64,000 nucleotides of DNA from Candidatus Anstonellales archaeon (GTDB lineage: Archaea; Micrarchaeota; Micrarchaeia; Anstonellales; J096): assembly GCA_038896535.1 (NCBI GenBank), contig JAWACY010000001.1, positions 64,001 to 128,000 of the forward strand, in the 5' to 3' direction. Positions 22 to 60,075 of this stretch are shown piece after piece. Position 1 is the stretch's first letter. Every line of letters starts with the position of its first letter. The notes beneath the pieces were generated by a model that was not told where the DNA came from, did not search any database, and saw only the letters and a program-made list of their open reading frames with translations. Made by a program: the position numbers and the translations under genes.

Positions 22-258
22 GGAAGATTATAAGAAGGCGCCAATAAAAGGGTTAGCGCCTTCTTATAGTGAGTAAAAAGCGTCTGGAAGATGATAAGAA
101 GGCCACCATAAAAGGGTTAGCGCCTTCTTATGGGAGACTATAAGGGTCAGGAAGATGATAAGAAGGCCCCCATAATAGGGTTAGCGCCTTCTTATAGTGA
201 GTAAAGGGGTTTGGAAGATGATAAGAAGGCGCCAATAAAAGGGTTCGCGCCTTCTTAT
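22..258. repeat. Array of at least 4 palindromic units (ATAAGAAGGC-N18-GCCTTCTTAT, each preceded by GGAAGAT), period 63-64 bp, directly 3' of tRNA-Arg(CCT); may continue beyond the window start
   Basis: Left arms TAAGAAGGC at 31, 95, 159, 222; right arms GCCTTCTTA at 58, 122, 186, 249; inner 18-mers are related but not identical. Confidence 0.95.
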
Positions 259-260
259 AA

Positions 261-335
261 CGGGCTCGGAGGGATTTGAACCCTCGACCTACGCCTTAGG
301 AGAGCGCCGCTCTATCCAAGCTGAGCTACGAGCCC
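261..335 (-). tRNA. tRNA-Arg(CCT)
   Basis: Reverse complement GGGCTCGTAGCTCAGCTTGGATAGAGC...GCGCT-CTCCTAA-GGCGT...GGTTCAAATCCC...CGAGCCCG folds as a cloverleaf; no encoded CCA, no intron. Confidence 0.96.
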
Positions 336-399
336 TTAATTTAATCATTTATTAATAAATGAATAAAGTTATAAAAAGCATTACTAAAATTTAAATAGT

Positions 400-1500
400 A
401 TGGACAAATTGGATGAAAAAATAAAGCAGATAGAGGAAGAGCTCAAAAGAACTGAAAGAAATAAAGCAACTGAACACCATATCGGCTTTTTATTGGCAAA
501 ACTGGCAAAACTGAAAAAAGAAAAAGAACAAAGAGAACAAAGAAAGGCAGGGAGTAAGGTCGGTTTTGCTATAAAAAAACAGGGGGACGCAACAGCTTTT
601 CTTATAGGTTTTCCATCAGTTGGAAAGAGCACACTCATAAATAAGCTGACTGGAACCAAAAGTAAAGTGGCTGCTTATGAATTTACAACTCTTGAAGCTA
701 TTCCAGGCATTTTAAAACACAGGGGGTTTGAAATACAATTGATAGATGCTCCAGGCATAATAAAGGGGGCAAGCTGGGGTAAGGGAAGAGGAAAAGAGGT
801 TATATCTGCATTGAGGGCGGCCGACTTATTAATAATAGTACTAGAGCCAGATAATATAAAAGAAAAATTAGACATAATTAAAGAAGAACTCTATAATGCT
901 GGCATAAGGATAAATGAAAAAAAACCAGATATAAAAATAGAAAAAACTGATAGAGGCGGGATAAACATAACAAAAAAATCAAGCATTTCAATAAGCGAAG
1001 AGGTAATAAAGAAAATATTAATGGAATTCAATTATCACAATGCCAACATCACACTAAATGAGGATATTACAGTAGAAAGATTAATTGATGCGATAGCTGG
1101 AAACAGATTTTATGTGAAGGCAATATTTATTGTAAATAAATCTGATAAGTTAAGTAATAAACAGCAAGAAGAAATAAAAAAAGTAATAAAAGAGCCATTA
1201 ATATTCTTATCTGCAGAGAGAGGAACAAATATTGAAGAATTAAAAGATAAAATAACAGAAAATATTGGATTAATAAAAATCTATACAATGGATAAATTCG
1301 GAAAAATAGATCATGAAAGGCCCTTAGTTTTAAAAGAAAATTCAACAGTTGCAGATGCTTGTAAAAAAATCCATAGGGATCTGTTGAAAAATTTCAATTA
1401 TGCGAAAATATGGGGAAAATCAGCAAAATTCAATGGTCAAAAAGTTGGGTTAGAACATATATTGATGGATGGCGATGTCATTTTTATAAAAACAAAGTAA
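400..1500 (+). CDS. drg: DRG-family (OBG) GTPase with C-terminal TGS domain
   Basis: NKATEHH N-terminus, GFPSVGKS, YEFTT, DAPG, NKSD, TGS-like end (GQKVGLEHILMDGD). Confidence 0.93.
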   Translation: MDKLDEKIKQIEEELKRTERNKATEHHIGFLLAKLAKLKKEKEQREQRKAGSKVGFAIKKQGDATAFLIGFPSVGKSTLINKLTGTKSKVAAYEFTTLEAIPGILKHRGFEIQLIDAPGIIKGASWGKGRGKEVISALRAADLLIIVLEPDNIKEKLDIIKEELYNAGIRINEKKPDIKIEKTDRGGINITKKSSISISEEVIKKILMEFNYHNANITLNEDITVERLIDAIAGNRFYVKAIFIVNKSDKLSNKQQEEIKKVIKEPLIFLSAERGTNIEELKDKITENIGLIKIYTMDKFGKIDHERPLVLKENSTVADACKKIHRDLLKNFNYAKIWGKSAKFNGQKVGLEHILMDGDVIFIKTK

Positions 1501-1546
1501 ATCATAGTGAGTTTTAAATATTTTTATGTATAAAAATTAACACTAA

Positions 1547-1618
1547 GGGCTCTTAGCTCAGAGGTAGAGCGCCCGCCTTGCACGCGGGAGGCCGGGGGTT
1601 CAAATCCCCCAGAGTCCA
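1547..1618 (+). tRNA. tRNA-Ala(TGC)
   Basis: Cloverleaf with CCCGC-CTTGCAC-GCGGG anticodon arm, G3:U70 pair in the acceptor stem, A73. Confidence 0.96.
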
Positions 1619-1665
1619 TGCATTTTTCCTTTAATGTTTATTTATCACTAGCTTCAAAAATTTAG

Positions 1666-2670
1666 TTAGTCTATTCTTTGTGCTATTATTGTTCTGCTCC
1701 TTAATTTTACTGATTTGCTTAAATTTGCTATTAATGATGATATCTCATTTATTTCCATAATTTTGCCATTTCTCAACTTAATTAAAACTGGGTCTTCTTT
1801 TTTTAATACCCTGCCGGGTTTTATTATCATATATTCATTTTTGTTCATTTTATTTATTGTATTTTTGTCAACTTCTTTATATAATTTTCTTAAAAGTAAA
1901 TTGTTTGCTGTACTTATGTGTTTTGCCATTTTATTAAGACAAAAATTATCACCTTTCCATATCAAATCATCAATTGATATTATGCCTTTTTTCAACGCTT
2001 CCATTAATGCTCTTTTTAACATGGCATCTGCTATTCTCACAGTGCGATGCAAATAAACAGTAAAAAACATTAAATAACGGGCAATGAAAAGCATTTCAAC
2101 ATTTGAAAGGCCGCTTTCTCTTACTAATATTGTGCCATTTTTATATTCAAGATTAGTTAATAAATGCTCGTAATCGACATAACCAAAGTATACTCCACAA
2201 TAATAAGCATCTCTCCTTAAATAATCAAGCCTATCACTCCCAAGAGAAAATGATATGATCTTTTTTTCTTTTGCTCTTTCGATCTCTTTTCTTGTAAAGC
2301 TTGTTCCTTTTAAAGCTTCATCAACAAATGCTTCCCCGAATTCCTCGTGGTTTTTACTTATGCCAAGCTTGTTTAAAACCTCTTCCCCAGAATGAGAAAA
2401 TGCAACATGCCCAATATCATGCAAAAGTCCATATACTCTGGCTTTTTCAACGTCCATGCCAAGTTTTTCTGCAATTGCGCCAGAAATATAAGCTGTGCCA
2501 ATACTATGTTCAAATCTTGTGTGGTTTGCTCCCGGATAAACCAAATATGCCATTGACAGCTGTTTTATTAATCTCAACCTTTGGAATATTGGCTTATCTA
2601 TTATTTCCTTTTCTTCCTTTGTTAATTTTATGAGCCCCAATAAAGGGTCTCTTACCTCAATTCCATCCAT
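1666..2670 (-). CDS. HD-domain phosphohydrolase (SAMHD1/dGTPase-related)
   Basis: FQRLR.IKQL, HTRFEHSIG, LLHDIGH..FSH, DRLDYL.RD, VYLH. Confidence 0.9.
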   Translation of the reverse strand: MDGIEVRDPLLGLIKLTKEEKEIIDKPIFQRLRLIKQLSMAYLVYPGANHTRFEHSIGTAYISGAIAEKLGMDVEKARVYGLLHDIGHVAFSHSGEEVLNKLGISKNHEEFGEAFVDEALKGTSFTRKEIERAKEKKIISFSLGSDRLDYLRRDAYYCGVYFGYVDYEHLLTNLEYKNGTILVRESGLSNVEMLFIARYLMFFTVYLHRTVRIADAMLKRALMEALKKGIISIDDLIWKGDNFCLNKMAKHISTANNLLLRKLYKEVDKNTINKMNKNEYMIIKPGRVLKKEDPVLIKLRNGKIMEINEISSLIANLSKSVKLRSRTIIAQRID

Positions 2671-3899
2671 TACTTAAACCTCATTCCATCTTTGTTTATG
2701 TCTTCTATTTTTTCAATATCGAACTCAATTTTTTTTCCGAAATTATCTTTTATTACAATTGTATGCCCTTCTATTTTTTGGACAGCTCCAATAACATCAC
2801 CAAACGCATTATAAGCATTCATCCCTGAGACATCTAAATTATTAATGAAGTTCTTTTTTAATGAATCAAGATACGTATAAATTATATAAGATGAAGCCAA
2901 TATAACAAAGCCGTATTTAATAACGTCTGCAAATGAAAAGAATGGCTGAGAATCATTTATTATCCACCTGATGAGTATTTTAACAAATAGAAAAATTGCT
3001 ATGAGTGATATTAATAAGGCTGAACTTGTCAAAAGCCTGAATGCATTACTTTCGTAATAAGATAATAATGTCTTCCATATCGCCAGCATAAATGCTATAA
3101 AAAAAATAAATGTTATCAATATATCAAAAGAACTTGCATAAGCAATCAAAACTCCCTCTTTAAGCTTTGACTCATAATTAGAGACAGTAACAACAAAGGC
3201 AACAATAATGAATAAAGTAAGTATAACTGTAACAAGTGCTTTTAAATTGCCTTCAATGTTTATGTTGAATGCCTCAATGACCTTATTATCTATACTAAAA
3301 CCTCTCGCTAATAAATAAGCTCCAAAGATAAATGTAACATACTGCCATGGGATATTAAAGAGCTGTATTAAAGAAGCGAATATCAATATCAATGCTGGTA
3401 AGCCAAATACGATTTTTGCATAATATGGGTCTTTTAATTTTTCTATCAGTAAAAAATAGGCTTTTTCAAGTTCTTTTGCTTGCTTTACATACAACACATC
3501 TGTTGCCTCTATTTTTACTCTTGAGTCAATGACCGGCACTATAGATTCATCACTCACACCATCAGTTACCAATATGGCTGAATCTGCATGAATAGATTTT
3601 AATATTGTATCAAGCTGGTTTGATATTCTTTTTGTTGCTTTAATACCAAGGTCTTTATGGCCAGCCAATAGAACTATTTCAACATCGCTTGATTTTTTCT
3701 TTAATGACCTATAAATTTTTATTGCTTTGAATATAACATTTGCATCCGGATCCTCTGGGTCTGCAACAGCAAGTCTTGTTGCTGCTTCTAAACATGCTTG
3801 CTCACCAATAACAGGAGCAGATAAATGCGCTTTTCTTCCTAGGTCATCATCTATATCTACAGCGATCACAAGCTTTGTCATATGTATTTTTAATACCAT
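2670..3899 (-). CDS. DUF373 family membrane protein, possibly with a small C-terminal beta-barrel domain
   Basis: VDIDDDLGRK, DPEDPDAN, VTDG..DE, VKQ motifs followed by several TM helices. Confidence 0.85.
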   Translation of the reverse strand: MVLKIHMTKLVIAVDIDDDLGRKAHLSAPVIGEQACLEAATRLAVADPEDPDANVIFKAIKIYRSLKKKSSDVEIVLLAGHKDLGIKATKRISNQLDTILKSIHADSAILVTDGVSDESIVPVIDSRVKIEATDVLYVKQAKELEKAYFLLIEKLKDPYYAKIVFGLPALILIFASLIQLFNIPWQYVTFIFGAYLLARGFSIDNKVIEAFNINIEGNLKALVTVILTLFIIVAFVVTVSNYESKLKEGVLIAYASSFDILITFIFFIAFMLAIWKTLLSYYESNAFRLLTSSALLISLIAIFLFVKILIRWIINDSQPFFSFADVIKYGFVILASSYIIYTYLDSLKKNFINNLDVSGMNAYNAFGDVIGAVQKIEGHTIVIKDNFGKKIEFDIEKIEDINKDGMRFK

Positions 3900-3926
3900 T
3901 GCTTTAAAATTATTATAGGTGGCGCT

Positions 3927-4187
3927 ATGAAGTTTACTTTATTAAAAGTTGGTAAAGAAGAACTTGAACTTGAATTAGATGAAGCAGACCCTACTTTAAC
4001 AGAATTATTAGCAGAAAAGTTGAATGAATATGATAATGTAGAATTTGCAGCATCAAGGTGGGACCACCCCTTAGTTGAAAAACCAAGGCTTTATTTAAAA
4101 GTAAATAAAGGCGAAGCAATGAAAACACTAAAAAAAGCAATTGAAGATTTAAAAAAAGATATAAAGAAAATAGAAAATGGACTTTAA
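3927..4187 (+). CDS. rpoL: RNA polymerase subunit Rpo11 (L)
   Basis: 86 aa; VEFAAS..DHPL...P motif; AGGTG RBS-like sequence upstream. Confidence 0.88.
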   Translation: MKFTLLKVGKEELELELDEADPTLTELLAEKLNEYDNVEFAASRWDHPLVEKPRLYLKVNKGEAMKTLKKAIEDLKKDIKKIENGL

Positions 4188-5118
4188 AAGCATATTTATT
4201 GATCCGAAATTACAAATCATCATACTTATACTACTGCTTTTATCTTATATCATAATGCCATTAAATATAAAATCATACATTGGCATTATTGCAGGTTTAT
4301 ACATAATATCTGCTTTTATCATGCAAACAAAAGAGTCAATAAAAGAGCACGGCATTATAAATGAATTAAAAGAGTTATTAATGATAATAATATTGATAGT
4401 TGGTATTTTGATGTTTCTAAAATTCTGGTTTAAAACAGATGCTCCAATAAGTGCTATAGCAAGCTGTTCAATGGCAAAAAACATTAACAGAGGAGATTTA
4501 ATATTTTTAAGTAATAGAGATAACATTAATGCTGAAATAAAAATTAACGCTAGTATAGATGATTTATTTAATCTTAAAACATCTATAATATTTAATAACT
4601 CCGAAATAGCAACTCTAAACGGCTCTTTGTTTATTTATTGTAGAGATAAACAAAATGACATATGCAGGATATTCAATTTAAATCCAGATATGTTTGCTGA
4701 AAAAAGAGGGCCATATTTATTTTATTATGGACAATGCTATAGGAATAATAAAATGGAGCCTTGTATAACAGATATTGGTTTTGGAGATAAAAGATATAAA
4801 ATAAGATTTACTGGTGATGTAATAGCTTATAGGCCAGCTAACGGAACATTATTTTCATTTACAGGGGATATTGTACATCGTGCCATCATTGAAATCAATG
4901 ATAACGGAAACGTCTTTTACATAACAAAAGGGGATAATAATAATATTTTTGATATACAAATTTATAACGCTGGTTTATATAACACACCTGTAAGTAAAAA
5001 TCAAGTCATAGGAAAAGTTATTTACTCTCTGCCATATCTTGGTTATTACAAACTCTTTATAAGTCCATATGTTGCTGAGGATTATAGTTGTATAAACACG
5101 CTCCTGCCACCATCTTAA
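4177..5118 (+). CDS. Signal peptidase I (S26B/Sec11-type) with extra N-terminal TM helices and a large insertion
   Basis: S.SM...I.RGDL, IVHR, TKGDNN, VIGKV...PYLG motifs. Confidence 0.82.
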   Translation: MDFKSIFIDPKLQIIILILLLLSYIIMPLNIKSYIGIIAGLYIISAFIMQTKESIKEHGIINELKELLMIIILIVGILMFLKFWFKTDAPISAIASCSMAKNINRGDLIFLSNRDNINAEIKINASIDDLFNLKTSIIFNNSEIATLNGSLFIYCRDKQNDICRIFNLNPDMFAEKRGPYLFYYGQCYRNNKMEPCITDIGFGDKRYKIRFTGDVIAYRPANGTLFSFTGDIVHRAIIEINDNGNVFYITKGDNNNIFDIQIYNAGLYNTPVSKNQVIGKVIYSLPYLGYYKLFISPYVAEDYSCINTLLPPS

Positions 5119-5177
5119 ACAGCTTATTAAAAATAAAAAGATAGCATAAATTTATAATCATAATTTAAAATATAAGT

Positions 5178-7574
5178 ATGCAAGCGGACTATAGGGACAA
5201 AGCACATAAAAACAAATTAAAAAAGGCTATATTGTTAGATGTTGATTACGTATATAACAAAAAATTTGATGCTGGTTTTATAAGTCTGCTATTAAAAACG
5301 CAGAACGGCATAATAAGAAGATTTTATAAGTTTGACCCATATTTTCTAGTTGATACAAAAGAAATCGAGCGGGGATTAAGATTGCTTAAAAGCCAAAATA
5401 TAGATGCAAGTGCTGAAAAAACAGAGAGAATAATAAATAATGAGAAAAAACAGTTATGGAAAATAATAACAAAAAAGCCGAGCCTTATACCAAAAGCAAA
5501 AAAAATATTGGAAGCTGGCCTTGAAAATGCATCATTTTATGAATATGACATACCTATAAAAAAACGTTTTATGATTGACTATGGGATAGAACCATTCAAT
5601 GAGATATACTATAAATTAAAAGACAAAAGATTAATAGAAGAAATAAAAAATCAAAAGGAGGCTAAGCCCCATTTCAAATTAATGAGTTTCGATATTGAAG
5701 TTTATAACCCACAAGGTGTACCAAATCCTGATAAAGATAATATAATAATTATATCATATAAAAAAGATGATAAAGCATCAGCTATTTCTACTTCACATGC
5801 AAAAAATTCAGCCTTTGCAAAAGATGAGAAAGAACTCTTATTAAAGTTTGATGAACTCATAAAAGAAGAAAAGCCAGACATTATATTTGGCTATAACTCT
5901 TCCTTATTTGACTTTCCATACATAGAAAAAAGGGCAAAGAAACTAAAAATAAAATTGCAGTTGCTGAAAAAATCAAAGAGAATAAGCAAGGGCCTAATAA
6001 AAGGATATAAACTCAGAAGACATATACATCTTGACCTATATCATATAGCAAGATTGCTAAACATTATGGGTATTATTGAAGCTGAAAGACTAACATTGGC
6101 AGATTTGTACAAATCTTTATTCGCAAAAGATAAGTATATGCTTAATAGGCTTGAAATATGGAAATACTGGGACAAAGGGGATAAAGAAGACACTATTAAA
6201 TATGCAATAGGAGATGCTGAAGCAACATTTGAAATAGCAAAAGAGTTTCTTCCTTTAGAAGTTGAACTTGCAAAAACAGCAAAAACAACACTCTTTGATG
6301 TCTCTTTATCAACTGCTGGCCAATTAGTTGAAAGTATGCTTATGTTCTATGCTGCAAAAGAACGCCAACTCATTCCAAAAAAGCCAAACGAGAATGAAAT
6401 AGCAAAAAGGCTTTTGATGCCAATAAAAGGGGGTTTTGTAAAACTACCGATGCCAGGCATTTATGACAATTTAGCTGTTCTTGATTTTAGGGGGTTGTAC
6501 CCTTCAATAATAGTGTCTTATAATGTTGATCCATCAACAATAGCAAATGGAAATGAAGAAGATGTTTTTATTTCACCAACCGGGATAAAATTTAAAAAAA
6601 GGCCCATTGGTTTAATACCAAAAGTACTTGATGAAATAATAGAAAAAAGAAAGGAAATAAAAAAGGTAGTAAAAAAGAGCAATGACCCCTATTTAAAAGC
6701 AAGAAGTCAGGCATTAAAAATATTGGCAAATTCATTTTACGGTTATCTGGGCTATGCTAGAAGTAGGTGGTATAACAGGGATTGCGCTGAAAGCATAACT
6801 GCATGGGGGAGGGAGCACATAAAAAAGGCTGAAGAAGAAGCTGAAAAAAGAGGCTTTGAGGTTCTTTATATAGATACAGATTCATTATTTTTACTAATGA
6901 AAAATAAAACAAAAGAAAGTGTTTTGGAATTTATAAAGGAATTCAACAAAAAATTGCCAGAAAAAATGGAATTAGAGCTTGAAAGTTTTTATAAAAGAGC
7001 ACTATTTGTAAGCAAAAAAGCAGAAGAAAAAGGGGCAAAAAAGAAATATGCTATGCTTGCGGAAGACGGGACAATAAAAATAAGGGGGTTCGAGCTTGTT
7101 AGGAGGGATTGGAGCGATATAGCACGAGAAACGCAAAGGGCTGTACTTGAAACTATATTAAAAGAAGAAAATAAGGAAAATGCATTGAAACATGCGATAT
7201 CAATAGTAAGAGATGTAATAGAAAAAATAAGGAATGGGCAGTTGCCAATAGAAAAATTTATAATAAAAACACAGATAAATAAAGGACTTGATGAATATGA
7301 AGCAACAAGCCCAGAACTCATTGCTGCAAAAAGATTAAAGTCAATTGGAAGAGACGTTGGAAGGGGAAGTGTCATAAGTTATGTTATAACAAAAAAAGGA
7401 AATAGTATATCTGAAAAATCTTATCCATATGAGCTTGCTGATAGTTATGATCCAGAATATTATATAAAAAATCAAATACTGCCTGCTGTTATGAAATTAT
7501 TAAAAGAACTTGGCATAAAAGAAGAAGAATTAACAAACAGTTTAGACCAAAAATCTTTGAAGCACTATTTTTAA
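5178..7574 (+). CDS. polB: Family B DNA polymerase, intein-free
   Basis: Exo motifs FDIE, GYN...FDFPY, Y...D; Pol motifs DFRGLYPS, K..ANSFYG, YIDTDS. Confidence 0.96.
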   Translation: MQADYRDKAHKNKLKKAILLDVDYVYNKKFDAGFISLLLKTQNGIIRRFYKFDPYFLVDTKEIERGLRLLKSQNIDASAEKTERIINNEKKQLWKIITKKPSLIPKAKKILEAGLENASFYEYDIPIKKRFMIDYGIEPFNEIYYKLKDKRLIEEIKNQKEAKPHFKLMSFDIEVYNPQGVPNPDKDNIIIISYKKDDKASAISTSHAKNSAFAKDEKELLLKFDELIKEEKPDIIFGYNSSLFDFPYIEKRAKKLKIKLQLLKKSKRISKGLIKGYKLRRHIHLDLYHIARLLNIMGIIEAERLTLADLYKSLFAKDKYMLNRLEIWKYWDKGDKEDTIKYAIGDAEATFEIAKEFLPLEVELAKTAKTTLFDVSLSTAGQLVESMLMFYAAKERQLIPKKPNENEIAKRLLMPIKGGFVKLPMPGIYDNLAVLDFRGLYPSIIVSYNVDPSTIANGNEEDVFISPTGIKFKKRPIGLIPKVLDEIIEKRKEIKKVVKKSNDPYLKARSQALKILANSFYGYLGYARSRWYNRDCAESITAWGREHIKKAEEEAEKRGFEVLYIDTDSLFLLMKNKTKESVLEFIKEFNKKLPEKMELELESFYKRALFVSKKAEEKGAKKKYAMLAEDGTIKIRGFELVRRDWSDIARETQRAVLETILKEENKENALKHAISIVRDVIEKIRNGQLPIEKFIIKTQINKGLDEYEATSPELIAAKRLKSIGRDVGRGSVISYVITKKGNSISEKSYPYELADSYDPEYYIKNQILPAVMKLLKELGIKEEELTNSLDQKSLKHYF

Positions 7575-7599
7575 ATTTTTGCCCACATTATTTATTAAT

Positions 7600-10700: not shown

Positions 10701-10708
10701 TGCTTCTT

Positions 10709-15757: not shown

Positions 15758-15763
15758 TGCTAT

Positions 15764-42834: not shown

Positions 42835-42843
42835 TTACAACAC

Positions 42844-47751: not shown

Positions 47752-47949
47752 TTAACCACCTCTAAAAAGAGCTTTAATTAAAAATATTATTAGCAGGTTT
47801 TTTAAAATTAATCAGTTTTTTCATTATGCCTATGTTTATCTGACACATAAATAAGCCCAAAACATATAAGTATGTTAAAAATCTAGCTGATAAAAAAGCA
47901 GTTTAATAACCAATTTACCCACCAAGCCAATAACATGAATCAGATATTT

Positions 47950-48231
47950 GTAAGAAGGCGGTGTATAAGCCAATTTGCCTTCTTCCCCAAGCGTATAATA
48001 GGGGCTGGAAGATTGTAAGAAGGCGTGTGTATAAGTTAATTTGCCTTCTTACTACAGGGAATAATAGGGGCAGGATGTTTGTAAGAAGGCGTGTGTATAA
48101 GGGTATTGCCTTCTTACCAAAGGGGATAATAGGGGCGGGAAGATTGTAAGAAGGCATGTTTAATAGGGTGAGCGCCTTCTTACCGGGAAGATTGTAAGAA
48201 GGCGTGTGTATAAGTTAATTTGCCTTCTTAC
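47950..48231. repeat. Array of 5 palindromic units (GTAAGAAGGC-N17/18-GCCTTCTTAC), period 65-66 bp with one shortened to 48 bp, directly 3' of tRNA-Lys(CTT)
   Basis: Left arms at 47950, 48015, 48081, 48146, 48194; right arms at 47977, 48043, 48108, 48174, 48222. Confidence 0.95.
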
Positions 48232-48233
48232 TA

Positions 48234-48307
48234 CGGGTCTGGAGGGATTTGAACCCTCGACACTCCGGTTAAGAGCCGGATGCTCTACCAAGCTGAGCTA
48301 CAGACCC
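48234..48307 (-). tRNA. tRNA-Lys(CTT)
   Basis: Reverse complement folds as a cloverleaf with TCCGG-CTCTTAA-CCGGA anticodon arm. Confidence 0.96.
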
Positions 48308-48368
48308 TTATAAACATTTATTTAAAAAACATTTTATAATATTAACACATTTAAAATATAGATAAAGA

Positions 48369-48441
48369 AGCCCCGTCGTCTAGTGGTCAAGGATGCCAGG
48401 CTTTGGCCCTGGAGACCCAGGTTCGAATCCTGGCGGGGCTG
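48369..48441 (+). tRNA. tRNA-Gln(TTG)
   Basis: AGCCCCG/CGGGGCT acceptor stem (A1-U72, typical of archaeal tRNA-Gln), CCAGG-CTTTGGC-CCTGG anticodon arm, GGTTCGAATCC. Confidence 0.95.
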
Positions 48442-48442
48442 T

Positions 48443-49525: not shown

Positions 49526-49651
49526 TTAACTTTACAATGATTATTTTATTTCTCTTTGTTTGCTTGGTTTTGCTTATATCTTTTTTGCTTATATCATTTT
49601 TACTTTATCAAGTTATAAGGCAAGAGATTTATTTATAATAATATATAGTTC

Positions 49652-51207: not shown

Positions 51208-51886
51208 TTCTCCGTCACCACAACAACTTAATGCTTTTACCTACGCCCATGATAATGGTTTTTCTTACTTGCTGTTCCTTTATAATCGCCAGACAAAACT
51301 TAACAGGTCCATTCAATTTGGACAAACCCAGTAATAATGAATATAAACCTAATAATGAATATAAACAAATCTTCTCTTCTTTAACACCTGCAAATTTTTC
51401 CTTTTTTAAATGGCGGTAGTTAGTCATAATTAGATTGCGTCCAACCACAATTAACCCAAAATTTACTAAGTTCTTCCCCATAATTACCGCCCAACCAAAA
51501 TTTGTTTTGCCTATTCACATTTTATATTATCTAATATTCACTTAATCACTAACTTTAATAAATCTATCTTAGCTATTTGTCATTTAATATCTATTTATTT
51601 AGTAAACACTTTGTTGTGGCATAATTAAGATATTGCACTTATTTGCTTATTATTACTGACTATATATTTGATTGATAGATTATCCATAATCAAACTGATG
51701 AATTAGGTGGTTATTTAGGTAGTTTATAATAAGAAGAAAAGGCATGATAGCTACCCTAATAGACCAATTCTATAATTAGATGAGCAGTATTTAAGCCAAT
51801 CATATCTTGTTAATACCACGCATATTAACATCTTATCAATGCATGTATTTTAGGTTATAAAATTATTAAACACAACTAAAAATTAA

Positions 51887-51959
51887 AGCCCCAGGAGGGA
51901 TTTGAACCCTCGACCTCGCCCTTACCAAGGGCGCGCTCTACCTGCTGAGCTACTAGGGC
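51887..51959 (-). tRNA. tRNA-Thr(GGT)
   Basis: Reverse complement folds as a cloverleaf with CGCCC-TTGGTAA-GGGCG anticodon arm; U73. Confidence 0.96.
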
Positions 51960-51968
51960 TTTAAGGAT

Positions 51969-53510: not shown

Positions 53511-53534
53511 TTATAGTTTTATGTGTAAATTTTA

Positions 53535-54851
53535 TTAAACATTATTGTTTTGTAATTGATATAATGAATCAATTTTGTCTTTTATTTCTTTTATAAAATC
53601 ATTGAAGCATGTTTCTGGTATTTCTGCTCCTCCAGCGCATTCATGCCCTCCAGCACTTGAATTATCAAAATATTTACACGTCTGTTTTAATATGTTATTT
53701 ACATTCATGTTTCTTGCCCTTAAACTTATTTTTATTCTCCCTCCTTTTTTGCTTATGCCTATAGTTGGCTTCTTATATTTCTCCATGATTTTATTGCACA
53801 CTATGCCTATTATGCCATGATAAATATTTTTTCTTCCATCTATTATTATGATATTACCAATGTCATTTGCAATGCTATCAGCTATTTTATATGCTTCATT
53901 TATTTTTTTCTTGTGGAATGTTGCCTGCTTTTGTATTTCCTTTATAGCCTGCTCATCATTAAAACATGCCTTTATGCCAAGCCAGCATTTTTTCCATCTG
54001 CCAGCAGCATTGAGTAATGTAGAAAAATCTGTTATTGTCATGCCCAAATTTTTTATTATATAAGAATCCCCTATAAACCTTTTTACGTTCTCCTCATCTT
54101 CTGTATAAAAAGCAAGGTCAAGGATTTTTTTTATTACACATTTTCTTTTCATCTCATCAAGAGCATTGAATGATTGCCATGCATTAACATTGCAAGTTTT
54201 TAAGAAATACTTTATTGCTGTTTCATTTTTGAAAACTTTTAAACCAGAATATTTTAATGCATATATCAATGGAACATTAGCCATTCTTAAAAAAGATATC
54301 TTTTTTTCATATATCCCTTCTTTTGTTATTAAATCGGCAATAGCTCTATTAATGTTTGTAAATGGCATTTGCATATCTCCAGCAGAGCCAACAAGGGACA
54401 TGCTGCTTAGTTCATTAAAAACTATATATGTTAATGAGGAAGTTGAACAAAACTTGCTTCCATCCAAGCCAAAATGCCATGGATTTAATATTGGCTTATC
54501 TAATTCTTCTGGTATGTGGTGATCTATTATTATTGCATTTTTTAACTCATTAACGATACTGCAAGAACCAAAATCAAGCATTATTATTTCATTCTCGTTT
54601 TTTATTAAGTCCAATCCATCAATTATGCTATCAAGCATTAATAGCCTTGGCTTTTTTCCTTGTTTTTTTAATGCCTTATAACATATTGCAGCAGATGATA
54701 TGCCATCAGCATCATAATGAAATACTATTAACGGCCTTTCCATTTGATAAGCAAGTTCTTTTATTTCGCTTGCTTTTTTATACATGTTAATTAATCTTTG
54801 GTCTTTGCATATGCTTTCTATATCTTCTATGGGGGTTTGCACGCATTGCAC
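53535..54851 (-). CDS. DHH/DHHA1 phosphoesterase (archaeal RecJ/Cdc45-like)
   Basis: HYDADG, DFG, IDHH, GD, SLR, GGH...GG. Confidence 0.88.
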   Translation of the reverse strand: MQCVQTPIEDIESICKDQRLINMYKKASEIKELAYQMERPLIVFHYDADGISSAAICYKALKKQGKKPRLLMLDSIIDGLDLIKNENEIIMLDFGSCSIVNELKNAIIIDHHIPEELDKPILNPWHFGLDGSKFCSTSSLTYIVFNELSSMSLVGSAGDMQMPFTNINRAIADLITKEGIYEKKISFLRMANVPLIYALKYSGLKVFKNETAIKYFLKTCNVNAWQSFNALDEMKRKCVIKKILDLAFYTEDEENVKRFIGDSYIIKNLGMTITDFSTLLNAAGRWKKCWLGIKACFNDEQAIKEIQKQATFHKKKINEAYKIADSIANDIGNIIIIDGRKNIYHGIIGIVCNKIMEKYKKPTIGISKKGGRIKISLRARNMNVNNILKQTCKYFDNSSAGGHECAGGAEIPETCFNDFIKEIKDKIDSLYQLQNNNV

Positions 54852-54915
54852 GCATAATTAATAGCTATATAATTTAAAAATATTACGACTAAACAACCAA
54901 AATTTAAAGCAACCT

Positions 54916-55818
54916 CTAAAACAAACCTGCTTTTTTCAACAGCAAGGGAAGCGCTAATGATGCCTCAGCATGTATATCAATATGCTTAGCCTTATCTTTT
55001 AACTTACCCCAGCTTATTGCTTCATTACTTCTTGCCCCGCTCAAAGAACCATCAAATTCAGTAGCTGTTGTTATATATATAGCATAATCTAACCCTCCTC
55101 TAACAATATTTATACCTATAACATGATGCTTACTTACTCCCCCTCCAATAATAAGGGCTCCAGTTTTTTCAGCATTTAATACAATATTGGCAAGTTTATT
55201 CATATCATCTCTCATTGCTATATCAAAATCCCTTTTTTGCTGCATAAAAAAATAGAGCTGCAGGCCTATAGCCCCATCTGTTATTGCTGGGCAGAATACT
55301 GGAATATTATTTTTATATGCCCAATAAAGAAAAGACTTTCTCTTATCTTTTCCATTTTTATCTATATACTGCCCGAATGCCTTTGCAATATCAGTTGGAT
55401 TAGCTTTGTTATTCAAATTTTTAAATACATCTTTGCATATTTGCTCAAGCTTTACATATCTATCATTTTTTACAAGTATGTTGCCTATTCTATTAATTCC
55501 TTTTTTATGCAGGGCAGCATCATTTTCATAAAAGCTCCCGATTTCATAACCTATAAATGATTTTATTACATCATGGTCAATTGCTCCTGCTGTTGTTATT
55601 ATTGCATGCACAACGCCTTTTTCAACAATTTTTGCTATTGCTCCTCTAAGACCAGATGCTATTAGATTTCCTGTAAAAGAAAAGAATATGCGTGCTTTCT
55701 TATCTGATATCATGTCTTTTAATATGCTTGCTCCTCTTGCTATTTGTGTTGATTGAAAGCCAATTGAATCTAAATTTTTTATATATTCATCAAAGTCTGA
55801 TGCATCATAAATTGGCAT
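54916..55818 (-). CDS. dys: Deoxyhypusine synthase
   Basis: TGNL.ASGLR, NRIGN, P..TDG, GGG..KHH, DGSLSGA...EA.SWGK. Confidence 0.94.
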   Translation of the reverse strand: MPIYDASDFDEYIKNLDSIGFQSTQIARGASILKDMISDKKARIFFSFTGNLIASGLRGAIAKIVEKGVVHAIITTAGAIDHDVIKSFIGYEIGSFYENDAALHKKGINRIGNILVKNDRYVKLEQICKDVFKNLNNKANPTDIAKAFGQYIDKNGKDKRKSFLYWAYKNNIPVFCPAITDGAIGLQLYFFMQQKRDFDIAMRDDMNKLANIVLNAEKTGALIIGGGVSKHHVIGINIVRGGLDYAIYITTATEFDGSLSGARSNEAISWGKLKDKAKHIDIHAEASLALPLLLKKAGLF

Positions 55819-55865
55819 TATATATTTTTAGCTTATTTTTTTAAAACCTCTGTTTAAATTCATTT

Positions 55866-56351
55866 ATGGAAAACCCATATGCAAAAAAGACTGAGGAAGC
55901 AATAGAAAAAGGGGGGTTGCTCGCACAATTATATTTTGACTTGCATGCTAGGTCAAAGGAAAGCTTGGAAAATCTTGGTGTTGGATTTTCATCAACGCTT
56001 GGTAAAGAAGAGGGAGTAATATTTGCTATAACTGAAGTAGAAAAACCGATAGAAAATGAGGATAAAAGTTATTCAACGTACATAAGGGCAACCTTGCTTT
56101 TTTCTGATTTTCCGGCATTATGTAAAATGTTAACAAAATACAATCCAGTAAGTATTGAAATAATAAAGCCAGAACAATTAAAATTAAAAAACATTGATCT
56201 GATGGAGGGGTTAATGGCATTCTCGGAGACGCTTTATAACTTGAAATTTAAACTTTATAAAGACAACCTATCAGAAAAAGAAAAGGCATTTATAGAAAGC
56301 ATAATAAAAGCAAGAGAGGAGATGGGAAAAAAATTAAGAAAGGGGCAATGA
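55866..56351 (+). CDS. Hypothetical protein (161 aa)
   Basis: Clean ORF co-oriented with the KaiC-like gene; Y.P.SIEII.P segment; no family assigned. Confidence 0.7.
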   Translation: MENPYAKKTEEAIEKGGLLAQLYFDLHARSKESLENLGVGFSSTLGKEEGVIFAITEVEKPIENEDKSYSTYIRATLLFSDFPALCKMLTKYNPVSIEIIKPEQLKLKNIDLMEGLMAFSETLYNLKFKLYKDNLSEKEKAFIESIIKAREEMGKKLRKGQ

Positions 56352-56355
56352 TAGA

Positions 56356-57021
56356 ATGGAATTAAAAGTTGGCATACCAAAGCTTGAAAAAGCATTGGGC
56401 GGTGGTTTTAACTATAATGATGTCGTTGCAATTACAGGCCCTACTGGAGTTGGTAAGTCAACACTAGCAATGCAATTATTGATAAATGGCATAAAAACTG
56501 GAGATAGGGGCATGTACATAATAATGGAGTTTGACAAAGCATATTTTTACAAAACATTTGAAAACTATATATGGAACATTCAAGATTATGAAGAGCTTGG
56601 AACTTTATTTATTGTTGATTACCCGCCAACAGAGATATCACATTTTATTGGGCAAGGAAATCCTCTGAAAGAAATTATAAGAAAATATGATATAAAAAGA
56701 GTAGTTATTGATTCAATATTGCCAATAGCCCTCTCAGCAACAAATGAAAGAGAAATGAGATTAAATTTAATAACAGCAGTTGATAAAATAAAAGATTGGG
56801 GGGTATTAACATTTATTATAGGCGAAAGCCCATGGAGTAAAAATAGTGAATTCCCATCCAGTTATTCAAAAATTGAATCATACGTTGATGGGTGGATAGC
56901 TATGAATTACAACATAAATGAAGAATGGGAAAGGCAACTTCTTGTAATAAAATCAAGAAAAAAACACGAGATAAAACCAATAAAATTCAGCATAGACAAG
57001 ACTGGCATTGTTTTTGAATAA
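56356..57021 (+). CDS. KaiC/RecA-superfamily single-domain ATPase
   Basis: GI..LE..L.GG, GPTGVGKS, RVVIDS, DG.I, V.KSR. Confidence 0.88.
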   Translation: MELKVGIPKLEKALGGGFNYNDVVAITGPTGVGKSTLAMQLLINGIKTGDRGMYIIMEFDKAYFYKTFENYIWNIQDYEELGTLFIVDYPPTEISHFIGQGNPLKEIIRKYDIKRVVIDSILPIALSATNEREMRLNLITAVDKIKDWGVLTFIIGESPWSKNSEFPSSYSKIESYVDGWIAMNYNINEEWERQLLVIKSRKKHEIKPIKFSIDKTGIVFE

Positions 57022-57024
57022 TTC

Positions 57025-57579
57025 TTAGCTTTTGAACTTCTTTAATGTTCTTTCTGCCCTGCCTAGGGCTGTTTCAATTTCATCTTTATTTCTAGCTCCG
57101 GCAACAATCAACTTGCCATTTTTGAATATTAATATTGATATATTTGGGTCTCTGAGCTTCAATATTGCTCCTGGGAATTGTTCTGGCTCATATTCGACAT
57201 CTGCGCTTATGTCCATGGCTATCTTAAATAAATCAAGCTCAAACCCTATATCAGCTGATGCAACCATGTTTGTTATTTCATATTTTGGTTTTTTTGTATC
57301 CAGCCTTTTGAATATCCTTGTTGCTGCTGGCAGAAGCATTTTATATGCCTTTATTATTGCTTCCTCTATTGTTTTTTTGTCTTTACAGCCTACAACAACA
57401 ATTTTGCCATTCTTGAATATAAGCAATGTAGCCTTTGGTTGGTTGAATTTTAATATTGCTCCTGGGAATTGTTCTGGCTCATATTCGACATTTCTAAATT
57501 TAGCAGGAAGCCTATACAGATCGAGCTCAATGCCAAGGTCAGAAGCTGCTACAAGATTTGTTATTTTATACTGCACCAT
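57025..57579 (-). CDS. tbp: TATA-box binding protein
   Basis: Two repeats of ITN.VA..D...LDL...VEYEPEQFPGAILK...IFKNGK. Confidence 0.97.
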   Translation of the reverse strand: MVQYKITNLVAASDLGIELDLYRLPAKFRNVEYEPEQFPGAILKFNQPKATLLIFKNGKIVVVGCKDKKTIEEAIIKAYKMLLPAATRIFKRLDTKKPKYEITNMVASADIGFELDLFKIAMDISADVEYEPEQFPGAILKLRDPNISILIFKNGKLIVAGARNKDEIETALGRAERTLKKFKS

Positions 57580-57650
57580 GATCTCACCTTTTTAAATATT
57601 ATGTATTATTGCTTAAAAAACTATTGTTTTTAAATATATATGGTGAGCTT

Positions 57651-57926
57651 ATGAAAAGACCAAAAGGATATTTAAGTAAAGCAACAAGAAGGATAAAAAG
57701 CAAGGGCAGGATAAAAGTAACTGAGCACATAAAAACATTTAACAAAGGAGATAAGGTAGTGATAGTACAAAAGCCATATTACAAAGGGGCTTTACCACAT
57801 ATTAGATATAAAAACAAGGTCGGCACTATTCTAGAGAAAAGAGGAAGCAGCTATGTAGTAATGATAAAGGATGGCAAAAAAGAAAAGAAGATCATATCCC
57901 ACCCAGTTCATTTGAAAAAGGCTTAA
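57651..57926 (+). CDS. rpl21e: 50S ribosomal protein L21e
   Basis: F..GDKV, PH.RY....G, RG..Y, DG.K.K.II.HP.HL; GGTGA RBS before ATG 57651. Confidence 0.93.
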   Translation: MKRPKGYLSKATRRIKSKGRIKVTEHIKTFNKGDKVVIVQKPYYKGALPHIRYKNKVGTILEKRGSSYVVMIKDGKKEKKIISHPVHLKKA

Positions 57927-57938
57927 TCTGGTGATAAA

Positions 57939-58253
57939 ATGGTAAAGGAGATAAAACCAGTAAGTGAGTTATTTGTAAAAGAACTTCTTGAAAAAAAAGC
58001 AAAAAAATATGGGGAAGAAAGCTTAACACATAATGAACAGCTTGTTTTAGCACATGCAAAGGCAATAGAAAAAATAGGGGCAACTGGGAAATTGGAGAAA
58101 GAACTAAAAAAAGTTTTGCCTGAAGAAGTTGCAATAAAAGTGCTTGATACAATGCCAAAGCATATTGATACTCTTAGGGCAATATTACTCAGCTATGGTA
58201 TAACAGATGAAAACAAGATAAATGAAGTTATGGAATTGCTGAAGGGCGGGTGA
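57939..58253 (+). CDS. rpoF: RNA polymerase subunit Rpo4 (F)
   Basis: Conserved rpl21e-rpoF-DUF655 order; EQ....HA, A.K..D..P....LRAIL. Confidence 0.85.
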   Translation: MVKEIKPVSELFVKELLEKKAKKYGEESLTHNEQLVLAHAKAIEKIGATGKLEKELKKVLPEEVAIKVLDTMPKHIDTLRAILLSYGITDENKINEVMELLKGG

Positions 58254-58254
58254 A

Positions 58255-58794
58255 ATGGAAGATTACATATACATATTAGATGCAATACCATATGGAAGTA
58301 AATACAAAGGCCAAGCATATGGCATAGGCATCGGAGAAAAATTTTTTGTTTTGCTTGAGGTAACATTCAAAAAAGATAAACAGCTTCCAAACATAGGGCA
58401 AAGAGTTTATGTTGGAAAAGAGATAAATAAAAGGGATGTTGTAGATAAAATAAAAAGAAGAATATCATATCAAGAACTAACTACAACTGCTAAGGAGAAT
58501 TTACAATCAGTTTTAAAGAAAATTGTTGAATCCCAGCAAGATAGGTTTGTGTCATTTATAAATACTGCTGGGCCATTATCTGTAAGGATACATCAGCTTG
58601 AGCAACTGCCTGGCATAGGAAAAAAGAACTTAGAGCAGATAATTGCAGAGAGAGAAAAAGAGGCATTTAAAGATTTTGCTGATATAAAAAAAAGAGTTAC
58701 AACATGGCAGGACCCAATCTTAAGTATTGTCCTAAGAATCATTGAAGAGATTGAAGGAAAACATAGGCACAATTTCTTTGTAAAGCCAATTTAA
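58255..58794 (+). CDS. DUF655 putative RNA-binding protein
   Basis: EDY.YILD, IGE..F.LLE, F.N.AGP...R.HQLE.LPGIGKK. Confidence 0.9.
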   Translation: MEDYIYILDAIPYGSKYKGQAYGIGIGEKFFVLLEVTFKKDKQLPNIGQRVYVGKEINKRDVVDKIKRRISYQELTTTAKENLQSVLKKIVESQQDRFVSFINTAGPLSVRIHQLEQLPGIGKKNLEQIIAEREKEAFKDFADIKKRVTTWQDPILSIVLRIIEEIEGKHRHNFFVKPI

Positions 58795-58804
58795 GGGTGG
58801 AAAG

Positions 58805-59923
58805 ATGGATAAAGAAAAACTGGACAAGCTTGTTGCCTTAACATTCGATGAAGACCCAAAAATAAGAAAAAAAGCTTTAAGAGAACTTGCAAAAGTAAAT
58901 GATGCTGCTGCATTGATAGCAATAGCTGAACTTGCATATGATAAAGATAAAAGCGTTCAAGAAGAAGCAAAACGCATATTGGAAGAAAGAAAAAAAACAC
59001 TTCCCCATAAACAATTGCCATTGAATGAGTTATTTGAGGGGGTAAGCTTCTCTGGTGGCCAGGAAAGCAAGAAAAAAGATGAAGAAAAAGCAGAAAAACA
59101 AGCAAGTGAACCAAGAATTATTGAACCAATAAAAAACATATTCCTGCAAAAATATAAAGATGAGAAAAAGGCAACAAAGGCACTGGAACAATTTATATCA
59201 AATATAAAAAGGGAGAAAGAGCCAACAGCACAGAATGTTTTGACTGCTTATATTGAAACAAGGGCATTTGAAAGTAAAGAGGATACAAATAACGTTATAA
59301 AAGAATTAATAGAAGAGAAAGCTGGGGAAAAGAATAAAGAGGGCATAGATATAGAGGTTATAGGGCACGATGTAAAAACAGAAAATATACAAAAAGAGGC
59401 TCAAGAAGTTGAAGATGACTATTTATTCAAAGAAGAAAAGAAAATGATAGAGGATTTATCTGCTTATCCACCGACGCCGTTTAAAATAGCATATGATGAG
59501 CTGATGGCTCTTAATGGTGATGAGAAATTAATGAAAAAGCAAGCAGATATGCTTGTTAATGTTTTTAAAAAACAAGTTGAACTTGCTTATAAAATTGTAA
59601 AGAAAAGGTTTAAGCAAATAAAATTAACAGATATCTCAGAAATCAAAGATGGCATGAAAGGCATAACAACAGATTTACTTGAAGTAATTGAAGTAAAACA
59701 CTTATCATATAAAGATGGAAAAAAAGAAAAATTGTTTACAAGGGTCATGTTAAGAGATGCTAATGGAAAGGAAGGCATATTATACCTTTTTGATGGCAGA
59801 GGCCAGTTTTTAAAACCTGGAATGAAAATATCACTAGAAAAGGCAAAAGCAAAAACATTCAAATTCTCAAATGAAACTGCATTAACTCTTGATAAAAGAG
59901 GCAGGGCTTATATACATATATAA
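58805..59923 (+). CDS. Protein with N-terminal HEAT-like repeat and C-terminal OB-fold-like domain
   Basis: D.DP.IR..A...L...and D.D..V...A...L pattern; C-terminus ISEIK.GM...V..V...L.D..G...L.LF.......G..I resembles SSB/RPA OB folds. Confidence 0.65.
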   Translation: MDKEKLDKLVALTFDEDPKIRKKALRELAKVNDAAALIAIAELAYDKDKSVQEEAKRILEERKKTLPHKQLPLNELFEGVSFSGGQESKKKDEEKAEKQASEPRIIEPIKNIFLQKYKDEKKATKALEQFISNIKREKEPTAQNVLTAYIETRAFESKEDTNNVIKELIEEKAGEKNKEGIDIEVIGHDVKTENIQKEAQEVEDDYLFKEEKKMIEDLSAYPPTPFKIAYDELMALNGDEKLMKKQADMLVNVFKKQVELAYKIVKKRFKQIKLTDISEIKDGMKGITTDLLEVIEVKHLSYKDGKKEKLFTRVMLRDANGKEGILYLFDGRGQFLKPGMKISLEKAKAKTFKFSNETALTLDKRGRAYIHI

Positions 59924-59959
59924 ATAAAAAGGTAAAATGGAAAAATAGAAAAATAGAAA

Positions 59960-60034
59960 GGGCTCGTAGCTCAGCTTGGATAGAGCGGCTGCCTTCTAAG
60001 CAGTAGGTCGAGGGTTCAAATCCCTCCGAGCCCG
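59960..60034 (+). tRNA. tRNA-Arg(TCT)
   Basis: Cloverleaf with GCTGC-CTTCTAA-GCAGT anticodon arm; otherwise matches tRNA-Arg(CCT). Confidence 0.96.
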
Positions 60035-60037
60035 TAG

Positions 60038-60075
60038 GTAAGAAGGCGCTAACCCTATTATACATGCCTTCTTAC
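60038..60075. repeat. Single palindromic unit of the tRNA-linked family
   Basis: GTAAGAAGGC-GCTAACCCTATTATACAT-GCCTTCTTAC, 3 nt after the tRNA discriminator. Confidence 0.93.

Follow-up and report, generated by a model that had tools for sequence, protein, structure and literature searches.

Palindromic tandem repeats directly downstream of tRNA genes in a micrarchaeal genome, with counterparts in two sister species

A family of palindromic tandem repeats stands directly behind tRNA genes in the genome of a Candidatus Anstonellales archaeon, a very small archaeon of symbiont type in the DPANN group (Micrarchaeota), represented by a metagenome-assembled genome of ~0.75 Mb. The repeats came to light in a stretch of 64,000 nucleotides (contig C1 of this genome, G000:C1:64001-128000; hereafter the window), where the unit RTAAGAAGGC-N17/18-GCCTTCTTAY adjoins the 3' ends of three tRNA genes. 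Across the whole genome (751,790 bases in five contigs, 32% G+C, 91% complete), 13 of the 43 tRNA genes have the unit in their 3' trailer, and these trailers hold 51 of its 63 copies, every one in the orientation of the tRNA. The reading we favor, with a confidence somewhat short of an even chance, is that of a lineage-specific palindromic tandem repeat which occupies tRNA 3' trailers and which in form resembles the repetitive extragenic palindromes (REPs) and bacterial interspersed mosaic elements (BIMEs).

Distribution of the repeat family

The window was searched with the pattern AAGAAGGC-N14..22-GCCTTCTT, which gave 10 matches, all at the three tRNA-adjoining loci, as against 0 matches in 100 of 100 dinucleotide shuffles. 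The genome count, made with a spacer of N15-19, placed the 63 copies at 16 loci, and the summed length of the arrays is 4,524 nt, ~0.6% of the genome. The tRNA genes were called with ARAGORN and its intron option, which gave the 43 in the genome, and those of the window were called by Rfam RF00005 as well. Arrays follow the genes for Leu (GAG, CAA, TAG, CAG, TAA), Arg (TCG, CCT, TCT), Lys (CTT), Thr (CGT, TGT) and Ile (GAT, TAT), and the first stem starts -1 to 4 nt past the discriminator base at 12 of these 13 genes; the exception is Leu-TAA, where ~80 nt of other sequence separate the tRNA from the array. A sequence-only reading of the window had described the motif as confined to three tRNA 3' ends and as holding the same orientation relative to the tRNA at each. 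Both statements stand for the window, the orientation rule holds at every tRNA-linked array of the genome, and the genome-wide scan that this reading had proposed recovered the tRNA association.

An exclusive linkage to tRNA genes does not hold, since 3 of the 16 loci, with the remaining 12 copies, are arrays without a tRNA, set among housekeeping genes. The first begins 7 nt past the stop codon of a polyprenyl synthetase gene, the second lies between divergent genes for LonB and an MFS transporter, and the third is antisense, between a wyosine-synthesis gene and that for PCNA; the three gave no Rfam hits at E<=0.01. About six further degenerate copies lie inside or adjoin arrays. A longer-spacer match at C1:271899, a lysine-rich sequence behind an ATG, was excluded from the family.

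The genome is a metagenome assembly, and the arrays may be suspected of being its artefact, in that contig C2 breaks off within an array that C4 takes up again, and identical units at Leu-CAG could have been mis-counted. This explanation is hardly credible in view of sixteen loci with unique flanks, of units that mostly differ from their neighbors and of the same architecture in independently assembled sister genomes. The region is present in six DNA sequencing runs from two studies, with no RNA run listed. At the contig ends themselves, C2 stops inside the tRNA-Leu(CAG) array (C2:240146-240444) and C4:1-91 starts with the same unit; judged from these ends, the two contigs probably join at this array, whose assembled copy number is to be taken as provisional.

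Anatomy of the repeat unit

Each unit is composed of a 10-bp arm (RTAAGAAGGC), a loop of 17-18 nt, the complementary arm (GCCTTCTTAY) and a pyrimidine-rich linker of 14 or ~32 nt. It reads T(A/G)-GTAAGAAGGC-loop-GCCTTCTTAC-AATCTTCC-, after which comes either the next unit directly or a further AGCCCCTATTATNCCCTGTG. The short form repeats with a period of 48 nt (9 cases) and the long form with one of ~66 nt (66 in 18 cases, 65 in 7, 64 in 3 and 69 in 3). The loop between the 8-nt cores is mostly 18 nt long (51 units), less often 17 nt (11 units), and it comes in three main types (GCTAACCCTATTAT.., AAATTAACTTATACACAC and AATGCCCTTATACACAT) which, like the two linker types, follow one another in mixed order along the arrays. 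The earlier description of a fixed arm spacing around a drifting interior thus applies, with a spacing of 17-18 nt and with variable loops and linkers.

Two subfamilies differ in the outermost pair of the stem. Subfamily I (ATAAGAAGGC...GCCTTCTTAT) is found at three neighboring loci in C1:31-64 kb, behind Leu-GAG, Arg-TCG and Arg-CCT and hence regardless of tRNA identity, and subfamily II, with a G-C outer pair, at all remaining loci. Over 61 distinct rows the outer pair is GC in 47, AU in 7, GU in 2, UG in 1 and other in 4, and a possible eleventh pair is present in 28 of the 61. The eight core pairs never vary over these rows and are therefore uninformative about structure. A compensatory change at the outer pair, to which the sequence-only reading had pointed, is real, but it amounts essentially to one event between the two subfamilies, the core pairs being invariant. 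Degenerate stems show no RNA-strand bias (G-U vs A-C mismatches, three vs two), and folds of whole arrays are undefined because every arm can pair with every other arm.

Other properties of the unit were noted in passing. Where the 3' arm passes into the linker, the sequence is a pyrimidine mirror repeat (CCTTCT-TACAA-TCTTCC) across the arrays, e.g. at window 47950-48231 (-), and a triplex is conceivable in which a linker UCUUCC is the third strand, parallel to the purine arm AGAAGG; this idea is weakened by 17 of 62 units in which the linker starts ACAAAC rather than ACAATC and then has ACATCC or ACTTCC in place of TCTTCC. A coding gene was also considered and rejected: one frame of the sense strand runs without a stop over as many as 124 codons of A-type units, but it is interrupted by a TAA in B-type loops and thrown out of phase by C-type units. 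The 48- and 66-nt periods are multiples of three and, with the stop-free A-type frame, account for open frames of 80-124 codons. Two such spurious frames, L286:2463-2777 (-) and L285:2585-2827 (-), could be annotated as hypothetical repeat proteins.

The window loci

The three array-bearing tRNA genes of the window stand alongside three without an array (Ala-TGC, Gln-TTG and Thr-GGT), two of which serve as comparators below. Positions are those of the window.

22..258, minus strand: array 1, subfamily I, outer pair A-T; four units with 10-bp stems (30-67, 94-131, 158-195, 221-258), period 63-64 nt
261..335, minus strand: tRNA-Arg(CCT), no encoded CCA (ARAGORN; Rfam RF00005, 66.2 bits)
1547..1618, plus strand: tRNA-Ala(TGC), array-less comparator, with a T5 run from 4 nt past the gene
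47892..47897, minus strand: a T6 on the tRNA strand, the first oligo-T run behind tRNA-Lys(CTT), ~55 nt past the array
47950..48231, minus strand: array 2, subfamily II, outer pair G-C; five hairpin units
48234..48307, minus strand: tRNA-Lys(CTT) (ARAGORN, Rfam)
51886..51960, minus strand: tRNA-Thr(GGT), array-less comparator, with a T-run from 3 nt past the gene; the other two Thr isoacceptors have arrays
59960..60034, plus strand: tRNA-Arg(TCT) (ARAGORN, Rfam)
60038..60075, plus strand: single hairpin, subfamily II, with a type-A loop GCTAACCCTATTATACAT; core match 60040-60073
60092..60102, plus strand: T4 and T6 runs, 17-27 nt past the single hairpin

The core matches of array 1 span 32-256, and a fifth unit lies past the window start at genome C1:63961-63994. 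Array 2 has its cores at 47952-47984, 48017-48050, 48083-48115, 48148-48181 and 48196-48229; the unit nearest the tRNA has the short 14-nt linker (period 48), the others have long linkers (period 65-66), and in the distal unit the outer pair is disrupted (GGAAGAAGGC). Between discriminator and stem the spacers read TT (Arg-CCT), TA (Lys-CTT) and TAG (Arg-TCT), in agreement with the 2, 2 and 3 nt first reported, and the reported copy numbers of at least 4, 5 and 1 and the outer pairs, A-T at the first locus and G-C at the other two, were likewise recovered on re-reading, with the fifth unit of locus 1 outside the window. The T6 run at 47892..47897 and the T4/T6 runs at 60092..60102 are the likely transcription stops of the tRNA-Lys(CTT) and tRNA-Arg(TCT) units, respectively.

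Transcription signals and the fate of the trailer

Archaeal terminators are described as U-tracts in passages of two studies (PMC8716108; PMC3491384), and by this measure the arrays lie ahead of the place where transcription would stop. A T4 occurs within 12 nt of the gene at 0 of 13 array tRNAs vs 12 of 30 array-less tRNAs, whose median first T4 is at 16.5 nt. At 9 of the 13 the first T4 comes only past the array, e.g. 336 nt behind tRNA-Lys(CTT) and 511 nt behind tRNA-Thr(CGT); in the other four (Leu-GAG, Arg-CCT, Ile-TAT and Leu-CAG) it lies inside the array, and subfamily II units are without a T4. The arrays are copies of one unit, so that the missing T4 is not independent evidence of selection. 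It does speak against the units as archaeal intrinsic terminators, which would have oligo-T at the stop site. The genome also carries a gene for RNase Z (C3:39534-40397; 299 of 302 model positions, 266 bits), and the array tRNAs have no encoded CCA. With the arrays ahead of the first oligo-T and RNase Z present, the array is most likely transcribed with its tRNA as a trailer and severed by RNase Z at the discriminator. Release of an array RNA by tRNase Z, as the sequence-only reading had proposed, is thus plausible from the gene and from the position before the T-run.

If the trailer is so released, it might be a functional multi-hairpin RNA, yielding small RNAs or acting as a sponge or platform for a protein that reads the AAGAAGG/CCUUCUU stem. 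Such a role has a precedent in another DPANN archaeon, Nanoarchaeum equitans, in which, as a passage of PMC3491384 describes, small RNA genes lie directly downstream of tRNAs and RNase Z makes their 5' ends. The presence of RNase Z, the position of the arrays before the first T-run, the sense orientation of all arrays behind a tRNA or a plausible TATA-like box, the invariant arms, and the same position and CTTCTT/AAGAAG core in three species all agree with it. Against it stand a copy number that ranges from 1 to at least 7, the decay of distal units and tRNA families that differ between species. No Rfam family matches even at E up to 10, the C box (RUGAUGA) has no exact occurrence on either strand of the 4,524 nt of arrays, the few degenerate stems lack a bias of G-U over A-C, arm pairing is ambiguous, and there is no extended complementarity elsewhere in the genome; array-complementary 11-mers outside the arrays number 213, vs 235 in the same sense, and antisense targets were accordingly dropped as an explanation. 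The CCCCTATTAT sequence recurs at 14 sites outside the arrays, where it appears to be the antisense strand of coding motifs rich in glycine. We regard a functional RNA of this kind as unlikely.

The arrays could instead serve as DNA, as sites for an arm-binding protein that forms a polar roadblock ending tRNA transcription, protects the gene against transcription or replication coming from the other side, or organizes the chromosome. Invariant arms at a fixed 17-18 bp spacing around a drifting interior, with an orientation tied to the gene, are what such sites would look like, and subfamily II, having no T-run, would welcome another means of stopping transcription. Nine of 12 array tRNAs also stand opposite a converging gene, vs 13 of 30 of the other tRNAs, a weak bias (roughly p 0.1 from the counts). 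However, no candidate protein was identified, a palindrome by itself has no polarity, and one unit at Arg-TCT vs 7 or more elsewhere argues against a dosed function. Together with the evidence from sister species given below, these points make a role as protein-binding DNA distinctly improbable.

Isoacceptor clustering and turnover of the arrays

The array tRNAs belong to 5 of the 20 amino-acid families: Leu 5 of 5, Arg 3 of 4, Thr 2 of 3, Ile 2 of 2 and Lys 1 of 2 (permutation p ~1e-5). Sequences are shared between the arrays. In Thr-CGT and Thr-TGT the first unit and its junction are all but identical, the first hairpin is common to Leu-TAG and Leu-CAG, and Lys-CTT and Thr-TGT show the same sequence, ACAAATATCTGATTCATGTTATTGG, past the last hairpin. 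Within arrays, four adjacent 66-nt units are identical at Leu-CAG, Thr-CGT is built of alternating blocks, distal units are often degenerate, and copy number varies from 1 to at least 7. The identical neighbors, degenerate distal units and shared ends suggest tandem slippage in combination with copying between tRNA genes that have similar 3' halves. The T-arm sequence GGGTTCAAATCCC is present in 13 of 13 array tRNAs vs 11 of 30 others (Fisher 1e-4), which is only a hint, since isoacceptors are not independent of one another.

The notion that the linker duplicates the tRNA 3' end was rejected: when parts of the unit were aligned locally with the last 32 nt of all 43 tRNAs, their best scores were reached by 297, 219 and 362 of 500 shuffles. 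A separate observation concerns the Leu-TAA trailer, in which C1:207430-207511 (L289) holds a palindrome made of an inverted and a direct T-arm copy, GGATTTGAAGCC-AAA-GGGTTCAAAT, fused to a degenerate hairpin unit.

Searches for mobilizing enzymes and known RNA families

In the 91%-complete genome, the Y1/RAYT family (REP-associated tyrosine transposases, PF01797) gave 0 hits at E<=0.01, with 6 of 14 control genomes positive; tyrosine recombinases (PF00589) gave 0 matches, not even to a XerA-like gene, with 14 of 14 controls positive; and reverse transcriptase, TnpB, serine recombinase/resolvase and IS110 gave 0 hits, again with positive controls. A co-occurring HUH/RAYT, tyrosine recombinase or reverse transcriptase gene, for which the sequence-only reading had advised a search, was thus not found in this genome. 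The comparison with Rfam that it also proposed left the array without a family: the window matched only tRNA and signal recognition particle (SRP) RNA models, and locus 2 at E<=10 returned nothing credible but tRNA.

These results bear most directly on a non-autonomous mobile element, similar to a REP or to a MITE (a miniature transposable element with inverted repeats), that is aimed at tRNA 3' ends and whose arms are the site of a nuclease or transposase. In such an element invariant arms around a variable interior would be terminal inverted repeats or REP stems, and the precise placement at tRNAs with unrelated acceptor sequences, the three arrays at non-tRNA sites among housekeeping genes and the specificity of the family to one species would all be natural. 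The distal end ACAAATATCTGATTCATGTTATTGG common to Lys-CTT and Thr-TGT suggests a defined terminus, and the T-arm sequence might serve for recognition, lying at a constant distance, although its statistic counts non-independent isoacceptors. The enzyme would have to come from the unassembled 9% of the genome, from a virus or plasmid or from the host archaeon, or to have been lost already; none of the searched recombinase, transposase or reverse transcriptase genes is present in the assembled part. The junctions show no target-site duplication, a GTRG head is seen in only 22 of 62 units, and clustering by isoacceptor family is unexpected for insertion guided by tRNA structure. An 18-mer of 3' arm and linker matches two viral contigs, both in coding sequence without a hairpin and hence by chance. 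Overall, a mobile element seems to us rather unlikely. As for the plain class of MITEs, arm-like inverted repeats are present, but with no target-site duplication at the junctions and no transposase family found (DDE families were not searched) it was set aside.

Other candidate classes were rejected as well. In a CRISPR array the spacers would not recur, whereas here loops and linkers are themselves repeated, and Cas6, the only cas family searched, was not found. H/ACA RNAs, type III antitoxin repeats and bulge-helix-bulge motifs were dropped on anatomy.

Trailer hairpins in sister species

The exact motif is specific to the species: as a family it occurs in 0 of 60 relatives and in 0 of 400 sampled genomes of the phylum, save one single chance hit. 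Among the matches listed for its 16-base palindrome in wider genome and metagenome contigs were single chance palindromes in unrelated bacteria, a search silent on close relatives. The architecture recurs, by contrast, in two other species of the same genus. G001 (43 tRNAs) has 19 perfect hairpins of at least 8 bp after Ala (3 of 3) and Pro (2 of 2) genes, and 1 such hairpin within 260 nt after the other 38 tRNAs; G002 (44 tRNAs) has 25 after Ala (3 of 3), Val (3 of 3), Pro (2 of 2) and Ile-GAT (Ile 1 of 2), and none after the other 35. These hairpins start 0-2 nt past the tRNA in 13 of 14 trailers and 6 nt past it in one, and their loops are of 2-3 nt. Motif hits in the two genomes lie in tRNA trailers in 5 of 5 cases and, counted separately, in 2 of 2 (G001) and 10 of 12 (G002), and elsewhere among 150 genomes of the order they stay at control level. 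Many of the hairpins are trailed by tails rich in ATC(A/G)A, and the first hairpin of each trailer usually has a T4-T6 in its 5' arm, like a palindromic terminator.

The arms vary in sequence yet remain perfectly paired (14 distinct arms among 19 hairpins in G001 and 14 among 25 in G002), with the arm core CTTCTT/AAGAAG common to all three species. Arms that keep their pairing and not their sequence fit a folded strand better than a binding site, which counts against a DNA-binding protein as the reader of the G000 arms. The tRNA families concerned differ between species, and this argues against an amino-acid-specific function.

Observations of a related kind were made in these and other genomes. 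In G002, two trailer-family hairpins at C16:13369-13491, on a contig with no tRNA listed, are possibly an orphan array like the three of G000. G003 (L029, L035), G005 (L330) and G006 (L332, L349, L359) have tandem trailer repeats of ~100-110 nt, each closed by T-arm copies in inverted and in direct orientation and by a duplicate of the tRNA 3' end; the tRNAs ahead of them are isoacceptors for a single amino acid (in G006, Ala-GGC and Ala-CGC). By their makeup the repeats look like tail repeats of the tyrT type or remnants of att (attachment) sites. Homology of the G000 unit to the tRNA-tail repeat of G006 (genus g4) was rejected (z 0 to 1.4).

Comparison with known systems

Full-text literature searches found no palindromic repeat family anchored to tRNA 3' ends, and the G000 family is best placed by its resemblance to several systems that each share part of its character. 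The description of the repeat as REP/MITE-like fits its form. REPs and BIMEs, as portrayed in a survey (PMC3733652) that lists bacterial phyla only and mentions archaea nowhere but among its references, are like the G000 family short extragenic palindromes of high copy number, with conserved stems, variable loops and mosaic clusters with alternative linkers, and they are species-specific, plausibly transcribed and mostly located downstream of genes or between converging genes, the sites that REPs favor. The same survey gives REP loops of mostly 2-4 nt, vs 17-18 nt in the G000 family, and a GTRG (GTAG) head in >90% of REPs (PMC3733652), vs 22 of 62 G000 units. REPs, moreover, are scattered and accompanied by a RAYT, whereas the G000 family is concentrated at tRNA 3' ends, where its orientation and spacing are fixed, and no RAYT was found.

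In Escherichia coli the tRNA 3' end recurs in the tyrT repeat units. The G000 unit, by contrast, resembles tRNA 3' ends no more than chance allows, is spread over 13 tRNA genes rather than one operon, and forms a perfect hairpin. What the two have in common, judging by a passage of PMC3318445 citing Bosl and Kersten 1991, is a set of tandem repeats directly behind a tRNA, co-transcribed with it and giving a trailer RNA (rttR/rtT RNA). The tRNA-sRNA genes of N. equitans share with the G000 arrays an RNA 3' of the tRNA in a DPANN archaeon, and in the passage of PMC3491384 they likewise involve two isoacceptors of one amino acid; the G000 arrays differ in having no C/D boxes and no Rfam family, and in being tandem and of variable number. 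Palindromic oligo-T terminators occupy the same position after the tRNA, and the first hairpins of G001 and G002 mostly have the T4-T6 of such terminators, unlike the G000 arrays with their T4-free subfamily II and a first T4 that is mostly past the array.

A last comparison is with the intergenic mosaic elements of Neisseria, in which dRS3 inverted repeats flank RS cassettes and act as integration sites for a transposase-bearing prophage. As in the G000 family, the cassettes are of a few alternative kinds and are separated by one and the same short inverted-repeat arm. We know of no link of the Neisseria elements to tRNA ends, and no such prophage was found in G000.

Weighing the explanations

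Taken together, the species-specific sequence, isoacceptor clustering, decaying distal units and identical neighbors fit a fast-turnover repeat at least as well as a functional system. In the palindromic tandem repeat that we favor, array length would change by slipped-strand or unequal recombination, and isoacceptors with similar 3' halves would pass the first trailer units to one another by conversion dependent on homology, with other intergenic sites only rarely reached. The G000 family would be the local, long-looped form of a habit of the genus, in which chosen isoacceptor families have several perfect hairpins directly after the tRNA. Any benefit it brings is probably modest and generic, a structured trailer shielding the precursor 3' end or buffering a converging gene, and a dedicated system is unlikely.

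Several findings sit poorly with this account. Of ~69 copies, 63 are perfect in all 16 bases of the core stem, in contrast to variable loops and linkers, and plain neutral drift with conversion would homogenize all parts to the same degree, which implies that something recognizes or preserves the arms. Nor does homology alone account for the precise spacing of ~2 nt at tRNAs whose five acceptor sequences are unrelated. It is these two unexplained features, invariant arms and constant spacing at unrelated acceptors, that keep the mobile element, the functional RNA and the DNA site alive as rivals. The position and the CTTCTT/AAGAAG core shared by three species could point to a conserved trans-acting factor and hence to function. 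Some subfamily I linkers carry T5-T6 and might stop transcription within the array, and both co-transcription and RNase Z cleavage are deductions from the position of the arrays and the presence of RNase Z rather than observations. The bias toward converging genes is slight, as noted, and the amino-acid clustering in the sister species (p 7.5e-4 in G001, 2.8e-4 in G002) was calculated with a hairpin threshold picked after seeing the data.

There is a minor but real chance of something more specific: either a functional tRNA feature, in which a conserved factor reads the AAGAAG/CUUCUU stem ~2 nt past the discriminator and so controls 3' maturation, termination or stability of chosen isoacceptors, or a copying process onto tRNA 3' ends that does not involve a RAYT. 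If either is true, it would be a new tRNA-linked system in archaea.

Other features of the genome

Six tRNA genes have introns of 15-64 nt (Tyr, Cys, Leu-CAA, Met, Trp and Ile-TAT; C1:55737-55830, 147055-147142 and 180178-180287; C2:154171-154324, 180396-180483 and 208746-208846). With the intron option off, a tRNA search missed three of the intron-bearing tRNAs and left two more without an amino-acid assignment. The introns fit an archaeal host. One further RNA gene is cut by the window end.

63876-63971, minus strand: SRP RNA, truncated at the window end; full gene at C1:127824-128079 (L394:325-580)

The window fragment matches Bacteria_small_SRP (44.5 bits). For the full RNA with flank (256 nt) the best model is Bacteria_large_SRP (98.3 bits), which outscores the archaeal model of the same clan despite the archaeal host.

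Significance

Small palindromic repeats are well studied in bacteria and hardly in archaea. The REP/BIME form of the G000 family is known; what the present analysis adds is the anchoring to tRNA 3' ends, the clustering by isoacceptor and the recurrence across a genus. On the practical side, such arrays interrupt assemblies and give rise to false open frames, which may end up in annotations made by gene callers. For the biology of these archaea, the point of interest is that in each of three congeneric species the trailers of whole isoacceptor families are filled with perfect hairpins, and that both the hairpins and the tRNA families differ from species to species. These species offer a natural system in which to ask how a repeat originates, homes to tRNA ends and turns over in a genome of <1 Mb without a visible transposase, and whether structured trailers matter to tRNA maturation in DPANN archaea.

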